Shown piece by piece: positions 32,355 to 52,373 of a stretch of 64,000 nt of DNA. A program made the position numbers and the translations under genes. Positions within the stretch are counted from its first letter, which is position 1; every line of letters begins with the position of its first letter. The notes beneath the pieces were generated by a model that was not told the origin of the DNA, did no database searches, and saw only the letters and a list, made by a program, of their open reading frames with translations. The stretch is from an uncultured Thermoplasmata archaeon (lineage in GTDB: Archaea > Thermoplasmatota > Thermoplasmata > RBG-16-68-12): assembly GCA_963768855.1 (NCBI GenBank), contig CAVYJM010000006.1, forward strand, positions 416,001-480,000. Reading direction: 5' to 3'.

Positions 32355-32427
32355 GCCACCCTAGCTCAGTCGGTAGAGCAGCCGCCTTGTAAGCGGCAGG
32401 TCGGGAGTTCAATTCTCCCGGGTGGCT
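32355..32427 (+). tRNA. tRNA-Thr(UGU), intron-less, CCA not encoded
   Basis: GCCACCC/GGGTGGC acceptor, GCTC/GAGC D-stem, GCCGC-CTTGTAA-GCGGC, GGGAG-TTCAATT-CTCCC; TTTTA promoter upstream. Confidence 0.97.
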
Positions 32428-45880: not shown

Positions 45881-45965
45881 GCGAGACATGGTAACGGATT
45901 CGATACTAACCATGATACGCAGGATACAACGCCCTTAATGAGGGACGCCCAACGACTTGTCGAAC

Positions 45966-48900
45966 ATGGACGAGAGCTACCTCGAGTGGCTACGAGTTCT
46001 CCCCGGCTTCTCGACGGAGAAGGCCCGGAAGGTCGCGGAGCGGTTCCCGACCTTCGAGCACCTCCGCGCCGCCATGCCCGAGGAGCTCGCGTCCGTGGAG
46101 GGCCTCACCGCCTACGACCTCGAGGCCCTCCACCGCCTCGTGCGCGATCCCCGGGGCCGCGACGCGGACGGGCATCTCTTCCTCTGTCCGGAGTGCGGCT
46201 CCTTCGCCGGGCCGGCGTCCACGGAGTGCCCCTTCTGCGGCGTCTCCTTCGACGAGGCGGAGCAGGACGCCTCCGTCGAGGAGATCGATGCCTTCCTCAA
46301 GGACGAGGCGGACCCCGCCCTCCTCTGCACGGGCTGCGGCGCGGTCATGGCGCGCGGGTCCACCCGGTGCGACGTCTGCGGGCGCACCTACACCCCGCAG
46401 GAGGCGGCGATCCTTCCCGGCGTCGCCCCCGAGCTCGAGTCGCCTTCCCGGTTCTGCCCCCATTGCGGGGCCTACCTCTCCGCGGAGGTCCCGGAGTGCA
46501 GCGTCTGCGGATTCGACCGCCTCAAAGCTCCCGACGTGGCCGTGAACGGCCACAACGGCAAGGGCCTCGCGGAGGGCTTCCTGAGCCGCTGGCAGCGGGT
46601 CGCGGAGACGCCTGCGTGCACGGAGATGGACCGCCTCGGCGAAGAACTCCTGCAGTACGAGAAGATCCTCGAGGCGGACCCGGCCCTCGAGAAAGTCTGG
46701 GCGAAGCGCGGGCGCGTCCTCGCGAGGATGGGACGCGCGATCGAGGCGGCGGAGAGCCTCTCGAAGGCAGCGGAGCTGGAGCCCGCGAAGGACGAAGAAT
46801 ACCGCCTCGAGGTCCTGGACATACTGAAGGCCAAGGGCGACCTGTCCTTCCTGCCGCCCCGCTGGGGCGAGCCCCGCGCGACCGCCGCCCCGTCCGTCGG
46901 GGATGCGCGCCTGATCGAGGCGCTCCGCCACTACGAGGTCCTCCTCGAGCGGGACCCCGGGATTGTGGTCGCATGGCGGACGAAGGGCGAGATCCTCGAG
47001 CGCCTTGGGCGCGCGGACGAAGCCCGCGTCTGCTTGGAGCGGGCGGATTCCCTCGAGCGCCGGGAAGGCGACCTCCTGAAGGCCCGCGTCTCCGGCCTCC
47101 AGGCGCAAGGCATCGCCCCTTCCGCCTTCTCCCTCTCCGGCCGCACGAACGGCCTCGGTGCGGGTCACGTGAACGGCCGCACGAACGGTCGAACGAACGG
47201 GCGGGTCAACGGGCTCGCGGAAGGGCGCGTGAACGGCCTGACGAACGGCGCCGTGAACGGACTCGGCATGGGCCGCGGGGCGACGAACGGACTCGGTGGC
47301 TTCACGAACGGCCGGACGAACGGGCTCGTGAACGGGAACGGATTCACGAACGGCCGCCGCGGCCGGTACGGGCCCACGCGGATTCCCGCCCAGCCCCACT
47401 GGGCCCGGTCCCTCGTCGGGATCGCGGCGGTCGTGGCCCTCATGGTCCTCGTCCCCGTCCTCGCGAGCATCCTGTCCCCCTCCCCCGGCGCGTACGCGCC
47501 GATCGCGATCGACCACAACTTCGGCGAGTGGAACCGCTTCACGGCGTACGCGAACGCGCCCCCCACGAACCTGAACAACCCGGACATCAACCTCCTCGCG
47601 GTCAAGGTCACCACGGATCCCTCGAACCTCTACGTATACGCGAGGGTCCAGGGGCTCTTCTTCCAGGCCCCGTGGACGAACGGGACGGAGAGCCTCCTCG
47701 TCTTCGTCGACGCTGACCACAACCCGAACACAGGCTACCCCGTCGGGGGCCTGGGCGCGGACCTCCTGGCCGTGGTCACGGGCTGGGATGGCCAGATTCA
47801 GACCATGGGCCGCTACGTGTTCAACGAGACGGGCGTGGTCCGCTCGAACGACTTCCGTCGCTTCCTCTCCGCGGGCTCCGTGGACGCGGCGTTCCTCGGC
47901 GACCAGTCCGAGATGCGCATCCCCCTGGACACGGATCCGGCCCAGGCCCGCTTCCTCGTGTACGCGGCGGACAACCTCGGCAACCGGGACAGCATGGTCG
48001 GTCTGATCCAGCCCGCGCGGCCGACGATCGTCGTGTCCCAGACCACCGTGGCGCCCGACACGGTTCGCAGCCTCTCGAACCCCGTCCTCCGGGTCTCCCT
48101 CTCCGGGATGGGCGGCTCGCCCTCCCTCACCGCGCTCTCCCTCCTGCGACAGGGCACCTCCGCGGACCCCGCTAACGTCTCCCTGTACCAGGATGACGGG
48201 AGCGGGACCTTCAGCGCGAACGACCCGCTCCTCGCCACGGCCTCCTTGTCCACCCCGCTCACGCGCATCCCCCTGAACCTGAGCCTCGTCCGACCCGTGA
48301 CCATGTGGGCGGTCGTTAACTGGACGACCCTCACCGCCAACCGGACGTTCGGGCTCCAGGTCGCCGCGGCCGCGGGCAACGGCACGTCGAGCCTGACGCC
48401 TCCCGACACGAAGCTCGTGTACCTCGGTGGGGCGCCCGCGACGCCCACCGTGGACGGAGCCTTCGGGGACTGGAGCGGCCGGCCCTACGGCGTGGATCCG
48501 CTCGGTGATGTCGTGAACGGCACGAACAGCTACGTCTACAATGCGAACGTGGACCTGCTCGCCGTGGCCGTGGACCGCGCGGCGAACGTGACGGGCTATG
48601 CCCAGGTGGACGGCCGCATGCTCGGCGGCGAGGACATCCCGAACGAGGCGCAGCGGCCGAACCCGACCCCGCCGAACGGGACCCTCAGCAACGTGACCCC
48701 ACCGTACGTCCCCCAGGTCGGGTATGACGTCCTATACGCGTACATCGACGCGGACAACTCCTCCCTTACAGGCCTCCCGGCGTCCTCGGGGACCGCGGAC
48801 TTCGGGTTCGACTACGCCCTCGCGATCACCGGTCGGAACGGCACGGTCTCCTCGAGCGCTCTCTACCGCTACGCCCCAACTGCGAACGCGACGTGGCAGT

Positions 48901-50336
48901 ACGTCCGCCCGATCGCCGCCGCCCTGGACGCGCACCGCGTCGAGTTCGGCGTGGACGCGAGCGCGATGAACCCGTCGGCCGCCTACCGGGTCGTGTTCTA
49001 CTCCACGGACTGGCGGCTCCAGTATGACGTCGCCCTGCCGGACGCCGCCGTGCGCTTCTTCGCCCTCGCGACCCAGGCCGTCGCGAACTCGGTCGTGCTC
49101 AACGAGATCTCCCCGCAGCCGAACCCGGAGTGGGTTGAGGTTGCGAATCCGACTTCCTCGAGCGTGAGTCTGCAAGGGTGGACATTGAACGTCGTGAAGG
49201 CGGGCAAGTTCTCGGTCATCTACACGTTCGGTAACGTCGTCCTAGGTCCCTTCGGATCGGGAACGGAGTACTTCGCCCCACAAGTGGACAAGAACTCCCT
49301 CCCGAACGGACAGAACACGGTCTCTCTGAATAACGGCCCGGTGGTTATGGACCAGACGACGTACGACTCGAGTGTCGGTGGTGCCAAGACGTGGTCCCGC
49401 CTCAAAGACCCAGCCACGGGTCAGCCCATGTCCTCCTACAATGGTGGGAGCGCGTGGTACGTTTCCGCCCTCCCGACGCAAGGCCGGCCAAACGACCGCA
49501 CCCGCCCGATCGTCTCCATCGCAAAGACGGTCAGTGCGGCTCGCGGTACGCCGGGCGATCTGCTGACCTACACGATCTACTTCAACAACACGGGTGACGG
49601 AGTCGCGAAGCTCGTCTGGCTGAACGACACGATGCCGAGCGGCCTCACCTACGTCTCGTCGAGCGTCGCCCCGGCCACGGTCGTCGGTTCCACGGTGAAC
49701 TGGGTCCTGACGAACGTCGCCCCGGGGGCGCACAGCCTCACGGTCTCCGCGGAGATCAACGGCAACGGGGCCGACGGATCGCTCCAGGTGAACCGGGTCG
49801 CCATGACGTATACGGACCAGATCCGGCGGGTCCTCGGGAGCGGCCAGGCGTGGGCGAACGTCACGGTGACGCGGCCCCAGATCACGATCGTGAAGACGGT
49901 CACCCCGGCGAGCGCGACGGCCGGCCAGACGGTCACCTACACGATCTACTACAACAACACGGGCTCGTCCAATGCGGGGACGGTCCACATCGTCGACATC
50001 CTCCCGAGCGGGCTCACGTACACGGGCAGCAACCCGGCCCCGACCGCCGTCAGCAATCGCACCTACTACTGGAACTTCTCGGACGTGACGCCGGGTTCCC
50101 ACAGCATCACGCTGACCGCGGTCGTGAACGCGGGCACGCCCACGGGCAACCTCGTGAACTGGGCGTTCCTGAACTACACGTCCATCCGGGGGTTCGTGCT
50201 CGGAGGCAGCGCCGCGTCCGCGATCGTCGCCATCCCCGAGCTCAGCGACTTCCTCTTCGTCCTTGCGGTGCCCACCCTGATCCTCGGGATGCGGTGGCGG
50301 ATTCGCCGCTCGAAGGGAGAGAGCAAGAAAGGGTGA
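45966..50336 (+). CDS. Giant membrane-spanning multidomain protein (HhH, three double Zn-ribbons, TPR, NG repeats, TM, extracellular beta domains, LTD-like, 2x DUF11-like, PEF-CTERM-like tail)
   Basis: Single 1456-aa ORF. LPGFSTEKARKVAERF; CPEC/CPFC, CTGC/CDVC, CPHC/CSVC; VWAKRGRVL and AWRTKGEILERLGR; internal TM; VVLNEI..EWVEVAN; KTV...G..TYTIY.NNTG twice; IPELSDFLF-TM-RWRIRR. Confidence 0.85.
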   Translation: MDESYLEWLRVLPGFSTEKARKVAERFPTFEHLRAAMPEELASVEGLTAYDLEALHRLVRDPRGRDADGHLFLCPECGSFAGPASTECPFCGVSFDEAEQDASVEEIDAFLKDEADPALLCTGCGAVMARGSTRCDVCGRTYTPQEAAILPGVAPELESPSRFCPHCGAYLSAEVPECSVCGFDRLKAPDVAVNGHNGKGLAEGFLSRWQRVAETPACTEMDRLGEELLQYEKILEADPALEKVWAKRGRVLARMGRAIEAAESLSKAAELEPAKDEEYRLEVLDILKAKGDLSFLPPRWGEPRATAAPSVGDARLIEALRHYEVLLERDPGIVVAWRTKGEILERLGRADEARVCLERADSLERREGDLLKARVSGLQAQGIAPSAFSLSGRTNGLGAGHVNGRTNGRTNGRVNGLAEGRVNGLTNGAVNGLGMGRGATNGLGGFTNGRTNGLVNGNGFTNGRRGRYGPTRIPAQPHWARSLVGIAAVVALMVLVPVLASILSPSPGAYAPIAIDHNFGEWNRFTAYANAPPTNLNNPDINLLAVKVTTDPSNLYVYARVQGLFFQAPWTNGTESLLVFVDADHNPNTGYPVGGLGADLLAVVTGWDGQIQTMGRYVFNETGVVRSNDFRRFLSAGSVDAAFLGDQSEMRIPLDTDPAQARFLVYAADNLGNRDSMVGLIQPARPTIVVSQTTVAPDTVRSLSNPVLRVSLSGMGGSPSLTALSLLRQGTSADPANVSLYQDDGSGTFSANDPLLATASLSTPLTRIPLNLSLVRPVTMWAVVNWTTLTANRTFGLQVAAAAGNGTSSLTPPDTKLVYLGGAPATPTVDGAFGDWSGRPYGVDPLGDVVNGTNSYVYNANVDLLAVAVDRAANVTGYAQVDGRMLGGEDIPNEAQRPNPTPPNGTLSNVTPPYVPQVGYDVLYAYIDADNSSLTGLPASSGTADFGFDYALAITGRNGTVSSSALYRYAPTANATWQYVRPIAAALDAHRVEFGVDASAMNPSAAYRVVFYSTDWRLQYDVALPDAAVRFFALATQAVANSVVLNEISPQPNPEWVEVANPTSSSVSLQGWTLNVVKAGKFSVIYTFGNVVLGPFGSGTEYFAPQVDKNSLPNGQNTVSLNNGPVVMDQTTYDSSVGGAKTWSRLKDPATGQPMSSYNGGSAWYVSALPTQGRPNDRTRPIVSIAKTVSAARGTPGDLLTYTIYFNNTGDGVAKLVWLNDTMPSGLTYVSSSVAPATVVGSTVNWVLTNVAPGAHSLTVSAEINGNGADGSLQVNRVAMTYTDQIRRVLGSGQAWANVTVTRPQITIVKTVTPASATAGQTVTYTIYYNNTGSSNAGTVHIVDILPSGLTYTGSNPAPTAVSNRTYYWNFSDVTPGSHSITLTAVVNAGTPTGNLVNWAFLNYTSIRGFVLGGSAASAIVAIPELSDFLFVLAVPTLILGMRWRIRRSKGESKKG
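47145..47360 (+). repeat. Intragenic Asn-Gly repeat (about 14 (T/V)NG units; DNA unit ACGAACGG/GTGAACGG)
   Basis: TNGLGAGHVNGRTNGRTNGRVNGLAEGRVNGLTNGAVNGLGMGRGATNGLGGFTNGRTNGLVNGNGFTNGRR. Confidence 0.9.
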
Positions 50337-50403
50337 GTGGCTGACAGCGTTCCATGGATCGGCGGCCGTTAGAGCGGCACGGTTCGTCGTCCACCACAAG
50401 GAT

Positions 50404-50559
50404 GGACGGCTAGCGTACCTAGGTCGCCGGCCCAAGCCCCGGTCAGGCCGGGGCGGGCTTCCCACGGGCTCGCGCACCGTAGTACCGCAGGGAACGTGGG
50501 CGGGCTTAACTTCCGGGTTCGGGATGGGACCGGGTGTATCCCCGCCGCTTTGGCCGTCA
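50404..50559 (-). rRNA. rrf: 5S rRNA, stand-alone, about 156 nt with a ~35-nt expansion
   Basis: GACGGC/GCCGTC helix I; CACCCGGTCCCATCCCGAACCCGGAAGTTAAGCCCGCC core; GTAC..TGCGCGAGC..GGGAA; TTTA box about 27 bp upstream. Confidence 0.95.
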
Positions 50560-50609
50560 AACCACTGCTGACGACGCCCAGAGTAAACGCGCTATATCAG
50601 GGTTTTGGT

Positions 50610-51566
50610 CTATGGGTGCGGCAGGACGGCCGTCAGGAAGCCGAGCATCACGTTCCCGACGAAGAACGCGAGGAGGAACCCCGCGAACAGGGGCACGAGG
50701 AACGGGACCTTGGGCTGGACCCACACCCGGTCCGCGCCGGCCGCCCGCAGCTTCGCGACCTCCTCGGACTCGTCCTTCGCGCGGGAGGGGAAGAGAACCG
50801 TCACCCGCTCCCCGTGGCGGTCCACGCGCTCCATGAGCCAGACGTGGGGTGGGAGATGGTCCAGGGGCGCCTTGGTCCCGAACAGCGCCTGCGGGAGCTC
50901 GAAGTCACCCCGGATCGCATTCACGAGCAGATACGCCACGGGGATGGCGAGGAAGAGGACCGCGGCGTTGACGAACACAACCAGGGAGAAGGGGAACAGG
51001 GTCCCCATGGCGTTCGCGACGTTCGAGGGCAGGACGAGGACCGGGAAGGGTGCCAGGTCCGGATAGTAGGGCACGAGCAGGGTTAGGGCCATCATCGCCT
51101 TCGTATCCGCTCCACCCCGGAGCAGGCCCAGTTGGAAGAATCCTTGGTAGACGACGAGCAGGACGGGCATGGATGCCAAGGCCGACAACGGAATCGTTCG
51201 ACTTGGGAGGCCGGCATGCGGGAGGAAGGGGAGTGGGTTCTCCGGGAGCAGCAGCGCCACGACGAAGGAGACGGTCGCGACGCCCAGGACGAGGACCCGG
51301 ACGGGCCGGAGATGGATCCCGTCCTCGTCGAGGATGGGCTTCCCGTAGAACACGGCGAAGAACAGGATGGCCGCAGAGCCCAGCAGAAGCCACCGGTTCA
51401 GACCCGCTTCCATCGCCACGAGGTCGACGGCGAGGACCGCGAGCCCCACGCTCCCGAGCGCGATCCAGACCGGATCCCGGACCCGACGTGTGCGCACGTC
51501 GAGCACCGCCGCGATGGCGAGGAACCCCGCGCCCACGACGAGGCGTGCGACGGAGAACGCGTCCAC
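50610..51566 (-). CDS. A24-family prepilin/prearchaellin peptidase (PibD/FlaK-like)
   Basis: AAVLDVRTRRV, GGADTKA, C-terminal VWVQPKVPFLVPL..GF; GTG start inferred. Confidence 0.9.
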   Translation of the reverse strand: MDAFSVARLVVGAGFLAIAAVLDVRTRRVRDPVWIALGSVGLAVLAVDLVAMEAGLNRWLLLGSAAILFFAVFYGKPILDEDGIHLRPVRVLVLGVATVSFVVALLLPENPLPFLPHAGLPSRTIPLSALASMPVLLVVYQGFFQLGLLRGGADTKAMMALTLLVPYYPDLAPFPVLVLPSNVANAMGTLFPFSLVVFVNAAVLFLAIPVAYLLVNAIRGDFELPQALFGTKAPLDHLPPHVWLMERVDRHGERVTVLFPSRAKDESEEVAKLRAAGADRVWVQPKVPFLVPLFAGFLLAFFVGNVMLGFLTAVLPHP

Positions 51567-51779
51567 GCGCGCGCATCGGGCGCTCCTTATTTCAAGCGTT
51601 CGACTCGAGAATCTGGCGCGGGGTCGAAGTGATCGTGAAAGCGCGTCCGCTTCGCCTCGTCCCGCGCGGCTGGCATGAGGTCCATCCTCGCGATTCAGTC
51701 GCAAACGACTAAATACCGCCTGTCGAATTGCATCCCGCATCGGGAGGAATCGCGCGGTCCTCCCTGCGGTCCCACTGCC

Positions 51780-52331
51780 ATGAGCGAGCCCCGACGGATG
51801 AAGGTGAAGATCTGCCTCGTCGGCGAGCACGCCGTCGGCAAGACGTCCCTCATCAAGCGGTACGTCCTGAACGAGTACGACGACCGGTACATCGTCACCC
51901 TCGGAGCGAAGGTCTCCAAGAAGGAGATGCTCCTGCAGCCGAAGGGCCGCGACGCCGTCCAGATGGACATGACGATCTGGGACATCATGGGTTCCAAGGG
52001 CTTCCGCGAGCTCCTGCGGGAGGCCTATTTCCACGGCGCCCAGGGAATCCTGGCCGTCGCGGACATCACGCGCTACGACACCCTGGAGGACCTCGACTCG
52101 TGGGTCGAGTCCGTCTTCCGCACGGTCGGGGAGATCCCCGTCGTCTTCACGATCAACAAGATGGACCTGAAGGACCAGGCCGCGTTCAGCGAGGAGCAGG
52201 TCAAGCAGGCCACGGAGGCCTTCGACGCCCCGTACTTCTACGCGTCCGCGAAGACGGGCGAGAATGTGGAGTCCGTGTTCCGCATCCTCGGCGAGACGAT
52301 CGTCAAGGGCGGTCCGTCGGCCGAGGACTGA
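51780..52331 (+). CDS. Rab/Ras-like small GTPase 2
   Basis: G1 GEHAVGKTS, YIVTLG, WDIMGS, NKMD, SAK. Confidence 0.92.
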   Translation: MSEPRRMKVKICLVGEHAVGKTSLIKRYVLNEYDDRYIVTLGAKVSKKEMLLQPKGRDAVQMDMTIWDIMGSKGFRELLREAYFHGAQGILAVADITRYDTLEDLDSWVESVFRTVGEIPVVFTINKMDLKDQAAFSEEQVKQATEAFDAPYFYASAKTGENVESVFRILGETIVKGGPSAED

Positions 52332-52373
52332 GGCGTTCCATAGCCTCAAGTATCCGCCGCAAATTCTCCGGGC

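Follow-up and report, generated by a model that had tools for sequence, protein, structure and literature searches.

An Expanded 5S rRNA Gene with a 101-Nucleotide Insert in an Uncultured Thermoplasmata Archaeon and Its Likely Relation to the Halococcus-Type Insert

The window analysed here, i.e., the whole stretch of 64,000 nucleotides, comes from a soil and sediment Thermoplasmata archaeon of the GTDB order RBG-16-68-12 (Ca. Angelarchaeales). Its single 5S rRNA match to RF00001 lies on the minus strand (50442-50561, 73.1 bits against a cut-off of 38; Rfam), and the sole other RNA gene in the window is a tRNA-Thr (UGU) at 32355-32427 on the plus strand (Rfam, ARAGORN). There are two neighboring genes: a convergent one on the plus strand (45957-50336), which encodes a 1459-aa DUF11/LTD/TPR surface-type protein and has its stop codon directly at the 3' end of the 5S gene, and one on the minus strand (50610-52349) upstream of the 5S promoter, the 579-aa product of which carries an archaeal peptidase A24 C-terminal domain. 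The initial annotation of this DNA had noticed extra sequence after the loop-E motif GGGAAG of the 5S gene, which is indeed present, but had described a gene of 156 nt with an insert of about 35 nt, whereas the actual gene has ~225-231 nt and the insert 101 nt. The features are as follows.

50336-50566, minus strand: whole expanded 5S rRNA, canonical core plus insert, with helix I formed by 50553-50566 and 50336-50348
50592-50607, minus strand: BRE/TATA-like promoter CAAAACCCTGATATAG, ~26 nt upstream of the predicted start near 50568-50569
50553-50566, minus strand: helix I 5' strand AGUGGUUUGACGGC, partner 50336-50348, seven columns (3-9/254-260) paired in 66/66 sequences
50457-50552, minus strand: canonical 5S core (Rfam alignment), comprising loop A, helices II-III, loop C, helix V 5' strand, loop E, helix IV, loop D, and GGGAAG-C; helices II, III, and IV 98.7-99.8% paired in 66 sequences
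50356-50456, minus strand: expansion segment of 101 nt, between pair G50488-C50457 and the U50489/A50355 position of helix V
50436-50454, minus strand: hairpin A of the insert, 7-bp stem GCCCCGG/CCGGGGC, 6/7 pairs with both-side changes in 66 sequences
50422-50433, minus strand: P1 5' strand GGGCCGGCGACC, partner 50356-50367, 10/12 pairs with compensatory changes
50414-50419, minus strand: P2 5' strand GGUACG, after the near-invariant A50420, partner 50376-50381
50386-50410, minus strand: P3 hairpin, 5/6 basal pairs with compensatory changes, length and loop differing among families
50376-50381, minus strand: P2 3' strand CGUGCC, 96-97% of P2 cells paired, 5/6 pairs with compensatory changes
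50368-50375, minus strand: conserved asymmetric bulge GCUCUAAC, G invariant and AA near invariant
50356-50367, minus strand: P1 3' strand GGCCGCCGAUCC, pairing with the P1 5' strand
50349-50355, minus strand: linker AU and helix V proximal 3' strand GGAAC (50349-50353)
50336-50348, minus strand: helix I 3' strand GCUGUCAGCCACU (GCUGUCAGCC[ACU]); two RNA contigs stop at 50339
50325-50330, minus strand: U-rich UUUCUU, a possible archaeal terminator judging from its sequence, overlapping the end of the convergent ORF 45957-50336

The 3' border assigned by Rfam was rejected because helix I is mispaired at that border; the model ends at 50442, where insert sequence is aligned as helix I, and about half of the helix I pairs so assigned are flagged as non-canonical. 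The 5S loci of 40 relatives were extracted and read past this border, and ~100 nt downstream of GGGAAG were found to be conserved, ending in ...GGAAC-GCUGUCAGCC. Because the 3' strands of helices V and I come directly after GGGAAG in the normal 5S genes of sister families (GGGAAG-CAUGGAUC-GCUGUCAGCC), we assigned the true 3' strands of both helices in the window to 50336-50355, and the gene therefore measures ~231 nt with a 101-nt insert (50356-50456), which interrupts the helix V 3' strand a single base pair below loop E. The expanded gene thus runs from ~50336/50339 to 50563/50566 on the minus strand, with inferred ends (~225-231 nt). Over 86 loci, the 5' strand and the closing strand were separated by either ~115 nt or 206-228 nt, a bimodal distribution, and it is only the distal strand 50336-50348 that closes helix I. 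The helix V proximal part (GG-AA-C) pairs with G-UU-CC at 50491-50495 in 93.6% of cells and aligns with CAUGGAUC of the normal relatives. The strand TAGGTACGCTAGCCGTC (50404-50420), previously designated the 3' strand of helix I, is actually inside the insert, where it comprises the 5' strand of P2 and the beginning of P3; the true strands of helices V and I are ~65 nt farther downstream. Right after helix I, oligo-U runs are clear in low-GC relatives.

The structure was tested on 66 distinct expanded genes belonging to 13 families, using the canonical core and five insert helices. Pairing was found in 92.1% of cells, compared with 83.1% in shuffles (0/500 reached the observed value) and 30-45% with the partners slid. 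Both-side changes occurred in 39 pairs overall, of which the insert contributes 26 (out of its 31 pairs), and the covariation score was 0.522 against a control of 0.235 in the model-fitted alignment of 64 sequences. The core helices are 93-100% paired among the 66 relatives, and every universally conserved 5S position is retained. The pair directly below loop E (columns 74-106) changes from G-C to C-G in family f7, and it follows from this switch that the insert enters one pair below loop E. The core of the hairpin described initially, GCCCCGG/CCGGGGC (50436-50454), is real, and the covariation expected of it is seen across the 66 sequences (e.g., CCCCGG/CCGGGG vs CCUCC/GGAGG), but it represents only the first arm of the insert; its supposed outer GCCC/GGGC stem is not supported, as pair 106-138 forms in 35/66 sequences only and C106 covaries with position 74 instead. 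Hairpin A is poorly aligned between families (55% paired in the model-fitted alignment A3).

The long arm consists, in order, of P1 (12 bp), the spacer U-A, P2 (6 bp), the internal loop CUA/GAAC, the P3 hairpin, and the 7-8-nt bulge GCUCUAAC. The two mismatches of P1 in the window are Watson-Crick pairs in relative L013, and the internal loop is similar to the loop-E core UA/GAA. Six unpaired residues are invariant or nearly so: A50420, A50384, A50383, G50375, A50370, and A50369. Other families have UUCG tetraloops or additional hairpins at P3. In addition, an extra hairpin within P3, with inserts of 109-113 nt, was observed in families f2 (L014-L016, L025, L073, and L074), f3 (L007 and L012), and f7 (L002 and L079), indicating continued growth of the arm at its end. 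Four pyrimidine-rich 2-nt linkers connect the distal part of helix V, hairpin A, P1, and the proximal part of helix V, and from them the site of the insert is predicted to be a four-way junction with inferred geometry. The borders of the insert are located in these junction linkers and are not paired with each other, and no bulge-helix-bulge (BHB) motif was found at them, in agreement with the initial annotation. A kink-turn, a possible L7Ae site, was considered for the P1/P2 bulge and rejected on inspection of the conserved residues: there is no GA after the bulge, UA is on the opposite strand, and the strand polarity is wrong.

The minimum free energy fold of the 225-nt RNA contains helix I formed via the distal strand as well as all insert helices (-104.5 kcal/mol, z -2.2), and the insert alone scores 90.8 bits with R2, a covariance model of the insert. 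The outer extension of helix I covaries between families (GUGG/CCAC, AAGGG/CCCUU, and GAGCAAC/GUUGCUC). The terminal stem of this 5S rRNA (50336-50348/50553-50566) is 13-17 bp long with a single bulged nucleotide; a long terminal stem as a specific character of the carriers was rejected, with means of 14.4 bp in carriers vs 12.9 bp in normal genes, some of which reach 16 bp.

The host genome (G000; 93.6% complete with 7.7% contamination) gave one 5S match in a genome-wide search, on a 1-Mb contig that also carries the 16S and 23S rRNA genes, and the second, normal copy that had been proposed as a check was thus sought and not found. On this contig (C6), the 5S (466336-466566), 16S (582583-584049), and 23S (975029-978247) rRNA genes are not linked to one another, an arrangement known from Thermoplasma; the match to 23S rRNA extends over 3219 nt vs the 2987 positions of the model. 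One 5S match was also found in 73/79 genomes of the order, and every one read was expanded. The closed genomes G115 and G206 carry the expanded 5S type only, and both copies of G078, likewise a closed genome, are expanded. The promoter motif GAAAYCCTGAWATA is present at the same distance in all members of the genus, and A-rich/TATA equivalents are found in other families. Because of this conserved BRE/TATA-like element, ~26 nt upstream of the predicted start, the 5S gene appears to be its own, almost leaderless transcription unit.

The distribution of the module was determined with R2. In the sample of the class, the module was found in 59/151 genomes, with one match each, always within the 5S gene, and carriers were cleanly split by family: f1-f7 (16/17), f10 (15/15), f14 (9/10), f21 (15/17), f22 (1/1), and f28 (2/2) carry it, and f8, f9, f11, f12 (0/16), f15-f20, f23-f27, f29, and f30 are without it. 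A divergent copy (27.8 bits) was detected in family f13, and the insert is absent from the normal 5S genes of 17 sister families. In the sample of the phylum, the module was found in 14/151 genomes, and families of other classes were among the carriers (f42, 9/9; f62, 1; f63, 2). One genome of another class contains two expanded 5S copies ~2.5 kb apart on one contig (L217/L218; G325:C128:5780-8675). A pattern scan was conducted over 185,579 species genomes, and the named carriers among the matches listed include Ca. Sysuiplasma, Ca. Saliniplasma, Ca. Haladaptatiplasma, UBA10834, RBG_16_67_27, and the Angelo soil MAGs EA_19 and EA_23. EA_19 was placed in GTDB o__RBG-16-68-12, f__RBG-16-68-12 (Diamond et al.; PMC9038741 supplement). 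Pattern-scan matches in bacteria, Haladaptatus, Haloarcula pellucida, and Natronomonas were rejected as chance 3' matches beside coding DNA or normal 5S genes.

The carriers were compared with a tree of a single gene, aEF-2 (57-61 genomes), whose deep nodes are poorly resolved. On this tree the carriers are clustered (9 changes vs ~20 in shuffles) but not monophyletic, and at least 4 changes are forced by well-supported branches. In the AU test, a single clade of all carriers was rejected (delta lnL 105.6, p 8.5e-5). The tree splits the GTDB order, which the AU test does not reject (p 0.3); with this split and the weak deep nodes, we rejected the aEF-2 tree as a species tree. These results suggest several losses or transfers of the insert, the number of which is not counted by this tree; several losses or transfers have likewise been proposed for the haloarchaeal genera. 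As a separate observation, the aEF-2 open frames of family f14 (e.g., L237-L239) are ~1050 aa long vs ~735 aa elsewhere, and the rows of f17, f48, and f53 are on very long branches. The odd loci (f14 and some of f17) may be fused, extended, or divergent EF-2 genes.

Expansions of archaeal 5S rRNA have been described in Halococcus, Halalkalicoccus, Halomarina, and Halodesulfurarchaeum only (Stepanov and Fox, 2021; PMC7812874), and our full-text literature search found no description of them in Thermoplasmatota. The Halococcus-type insert has 108 nt and is located between core positions 104.1 and 105, beside loop E (Luehrsen, 1981; PMC7812874). Cryo-EM of the Halococcus ribosome showed a four-way junction and a flexible arm, and the insert is mature and ribosome-bound (Tirumalai, 2020; PMC7530397). 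Adaptation to salt has been discussed as a possible role of the haloarchaeal expansion (PMC7812874). Our haloarchaeal comparison set consists of loci from the genome scan, in which Halococcus-type genes, among the matches listed, were found in Halalkalicoccus, Halodesulfurarchaeum, Salinirubellus, several Halobacteriales without cultured members, and a Marine Group IV (Hikarchaeia) MAG. Beyond the four genera known in 2021, these are L135 (Salinirubellus litoreus), L163 (Marine Group IV HikBin1), L111, L112, L115, L150, and L154. The haloarchaeal inserts (106-114 nt) come after GGGAAA and comprise hairpin A, P1, a spacer of 2 nt whose last base is A, P2, an internal loop, P3, and a bulge. Their P2 has 6 bp beginning with GG and shows compensatory changes, and their 3' bulge of 6-8 nt is GUUACAAC or GUCGAC.

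Evidence at the RNA level is available for this locus. The window stretch was found in 20 public runs from 13 studies, six of the runs being RNA libraries, and RNA contigs of four metatranscriptome studies were compared with 50200-50700. Being assembled contigs, they cannot give the RNA ends (including the 5' end), the stoichiometry, or the continuity of every molecule. Contigs of X16 (50339-50514) and X17 (50339-50515) cover the whole insert and both junctions with zero differences, and both stop at 50339 with no loose end; a contig of X15 extends over 50335-50543. In X20, insert contigs had a word depth of 1153-2238 and a contig at 50433-50568 a depth of 660, i.e., the depth within the insert is at least that of the core. 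The contigs crossing the insert and its junctions have 0-1 differences, and neither joints nor deletions were found in those of the four studies. Within 50200-50700, no RNA cover of the protein-coding flanks was found.

Taken together, it is very probable that the locus is a single functional 5S rRNA gene with a constitutive 101-nt expansion segment, yielding a one-piece mature RNA with a likely relative in the Halococcus type. The initial annotation had raised the idea of a precursor-only element removed in processing, and the insert might be excised as an intron or cut out as in a split 5S rRNA resembling the intervening sequences of bacterial 23S rRNA, leaving a mature 5S rRNA without it. 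While the RNA evidence comes from contigs rather than reads, it argues against removal: there is no joint in the four RNA studies, the contigs of X16 and X17 run without a break from the 3' end across the insert to the core, and the insert is no less deeply covered than the core in X20. The missing BHB, the position of the borders in 2-nt linkers of a predicted four-way junction, and the mature, ribosome-bound insert of Halococcus (PMC7530397) also speak against it, and unpaired residues as well as helices are under strong purifying selection across orders, which suits a part of the mature RNA. We therefore regard removal as very unlikely. It is even harder to believe that the locus is a decaying or non-ribosomal derivative and that a working canonical 5S gene escaped assembly. 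rRNA genes are often missed in MAGs, and this one is 93.6% complete, but the 73/79 genomes of the order have one expanded and no canonical gene, as do the closed genomes, and the locus itself has kept the universally conserved core positions and its promoter, and its RNA is highly abundant.

The question of origin is less one-sided. An expansion independent of the haloarchaeal one, as envisaged in the initial annotation, would have arisen at an insertion-tolerant, solvent-exposed site, and the similar shape would be convergence. The two host groups belong to different phyla, and the matches of covariance models across the lineages, although at the right place and of full length, are weak (10-22 bits, E 0.004-5). 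R1, a Thermoplasmata-only model, found the Halalkalicoccus insert at full length with 22.5 bits (E 0.0037 in 159 kb); R2 gave 19.8, 16.8, and 10 bits on three haloarchaeal inserts, while a tRNA reached 17.3 bits, which marks the noise border; and the two best matches of R3, a halo-only model, in 36 kb of Thermoplasmata loci were their inserts (18.2 and 16.2 bits). These scores are too weak for a formal proof of homology. However, the best matches of each model in the other lineage fall exactly on the insert, and the likeness goes further. As the initial annotation had supposed, the insert, coming here after GGGAAG-C, is at about the Halococcus site, beside loop E on the helix V 3' strand; the two sites agree within 1-2 nt. 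Both inserts measure ~100-110 nt and form two arms with the order hairpin A-P1-P2-P3-3' bulge on a four-way junction (seen by cryo-EM there and predicted here). They share a spacer of 1-2 nt with A at its end, a P2 of 6 bp that begins with GG, and a 6-8-nt 3' bulge G...A(A)C, i.e., GCUCUAAC here and GUUACAAC or GUCGAC in the haloarchaea. Motifs common to both are AGG..CG (CC-YA-GG..CG-C.A) and ACCGU.CC-GU..A(A)C-GG, and 14/18 residues from the P2 3' strand to the start of P1 are identical between the window and Halalkalicoccus. Judging from the same site, size, helix order, and motifs together with the weak cross-model matches, a shared origin is likelier than independence; homology with the Halococcus-type insert is thus likely but unproven, and independence seems doubtful.

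According to our preferred reading, an expanded and functional 5S rRNA, the gene would be transcribed from its own BRE/TATA promoter and the RNA would stay unsplit, so that the arm belongs to the mature 5S rRNA. By its entry into helix V, on the 3' strand and one pair below loop E, the segment would create a four-way junction, from which two arms would leave: the short hairpin A and the long arm, consisting of P1, the conserved 6-bp P2 closed by A.G, the loop-E-like internal loop, P3, and the bulge. By analogy with the Halococcus ribosome, the arm may project via this junction from the solvent side of the central protuberance, and neither the function of the 5S rRNA nor the contacts with uL5, uL18, and 23S rRNA would be disturbed. 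The P2 region and its two flanking loops are a putative docking surface for a protein or an rRNA element, as deduced from the conservation of the unpaired A/G residues. The conservation of unpaired residues across orders is difficult to explain by a neutral expansion that is simply tolerated, while the variable hairpins of the insert could still be of this kind. We offer one broader proposal as a tentative and rather improbable one: the Halococcus insert and the Thermoplasmatota module may be one ancient element, moved horizontally or lost repeatedly (Thermoplasmatota, Halobacteria, and Hikarchaeia) and kept for docking by its invariant A/G bulges. If this were true, the docking partner would be a ribosomal protein, a biogenesis factor, or a 23S element, and the insert would be a functional 5S expansion segment shared across lineages rather than a neutral peculiarity of halophiles.

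Large expansions of archaeal 5S rRNA were previously thought to be limited to a few haloarchaeal genera with one insertion site. Expansion at 104.1/105 is thus known; what is new is the lineage, the breadth, the habitat, and the distal architecture. A related-looking, strongly conserved module of 93-113 nt is present at the same site in hundreds of non-halophilic uncultured Thermoplasmatota species, with soils, aquifers, wetlands, acid mine drainage, and soda lakes as their habitats, and these carriers remove the link between 5S expansion and halophily. Standard annotation (Rfam and barrnap) systematically truncates expanded 5S genes. A deep alignment is now provided that allows the arm structure to be worked out, and the binding partner of the arm and the spread of rRNA modules between phyla have become testable.

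Compared with known systems, the present 5S rRNA is most like the Halococcus type, with which it also shares an untouched core and the status of sole 5S gene of the genome. Unlike the Halococcus type, its hosts are not Halobacteria but non-halophilic Thermoplasmatota of soil, sediment, and groundwater, and the conserved distal hairpin CUGGG-UYCGU-CCCGG is missing here, P3 being short and variable; the Thermoplasmatota insert is most conserved at P2 and its flanking loops. The expanded 5S rRNAs of bacteria (Thermoanaerobacterium, etc.), which include 14 further structural types (PMC7812874), are likewise structured modules on an intact core that standard annotation misses, but they are inserted elsewhere (helix III bulge, loop C, and helix IV), often exist beside normal copies, and are unrelated in sequence. 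With canonical archaeal 5S rRNA (RF00001), the gene shares the core helices and conserved nucleotides as well as the separation from 16S and 23S and the own promoter known from Thermoplasma, and it differs from it by the 101 extra nucleotides.
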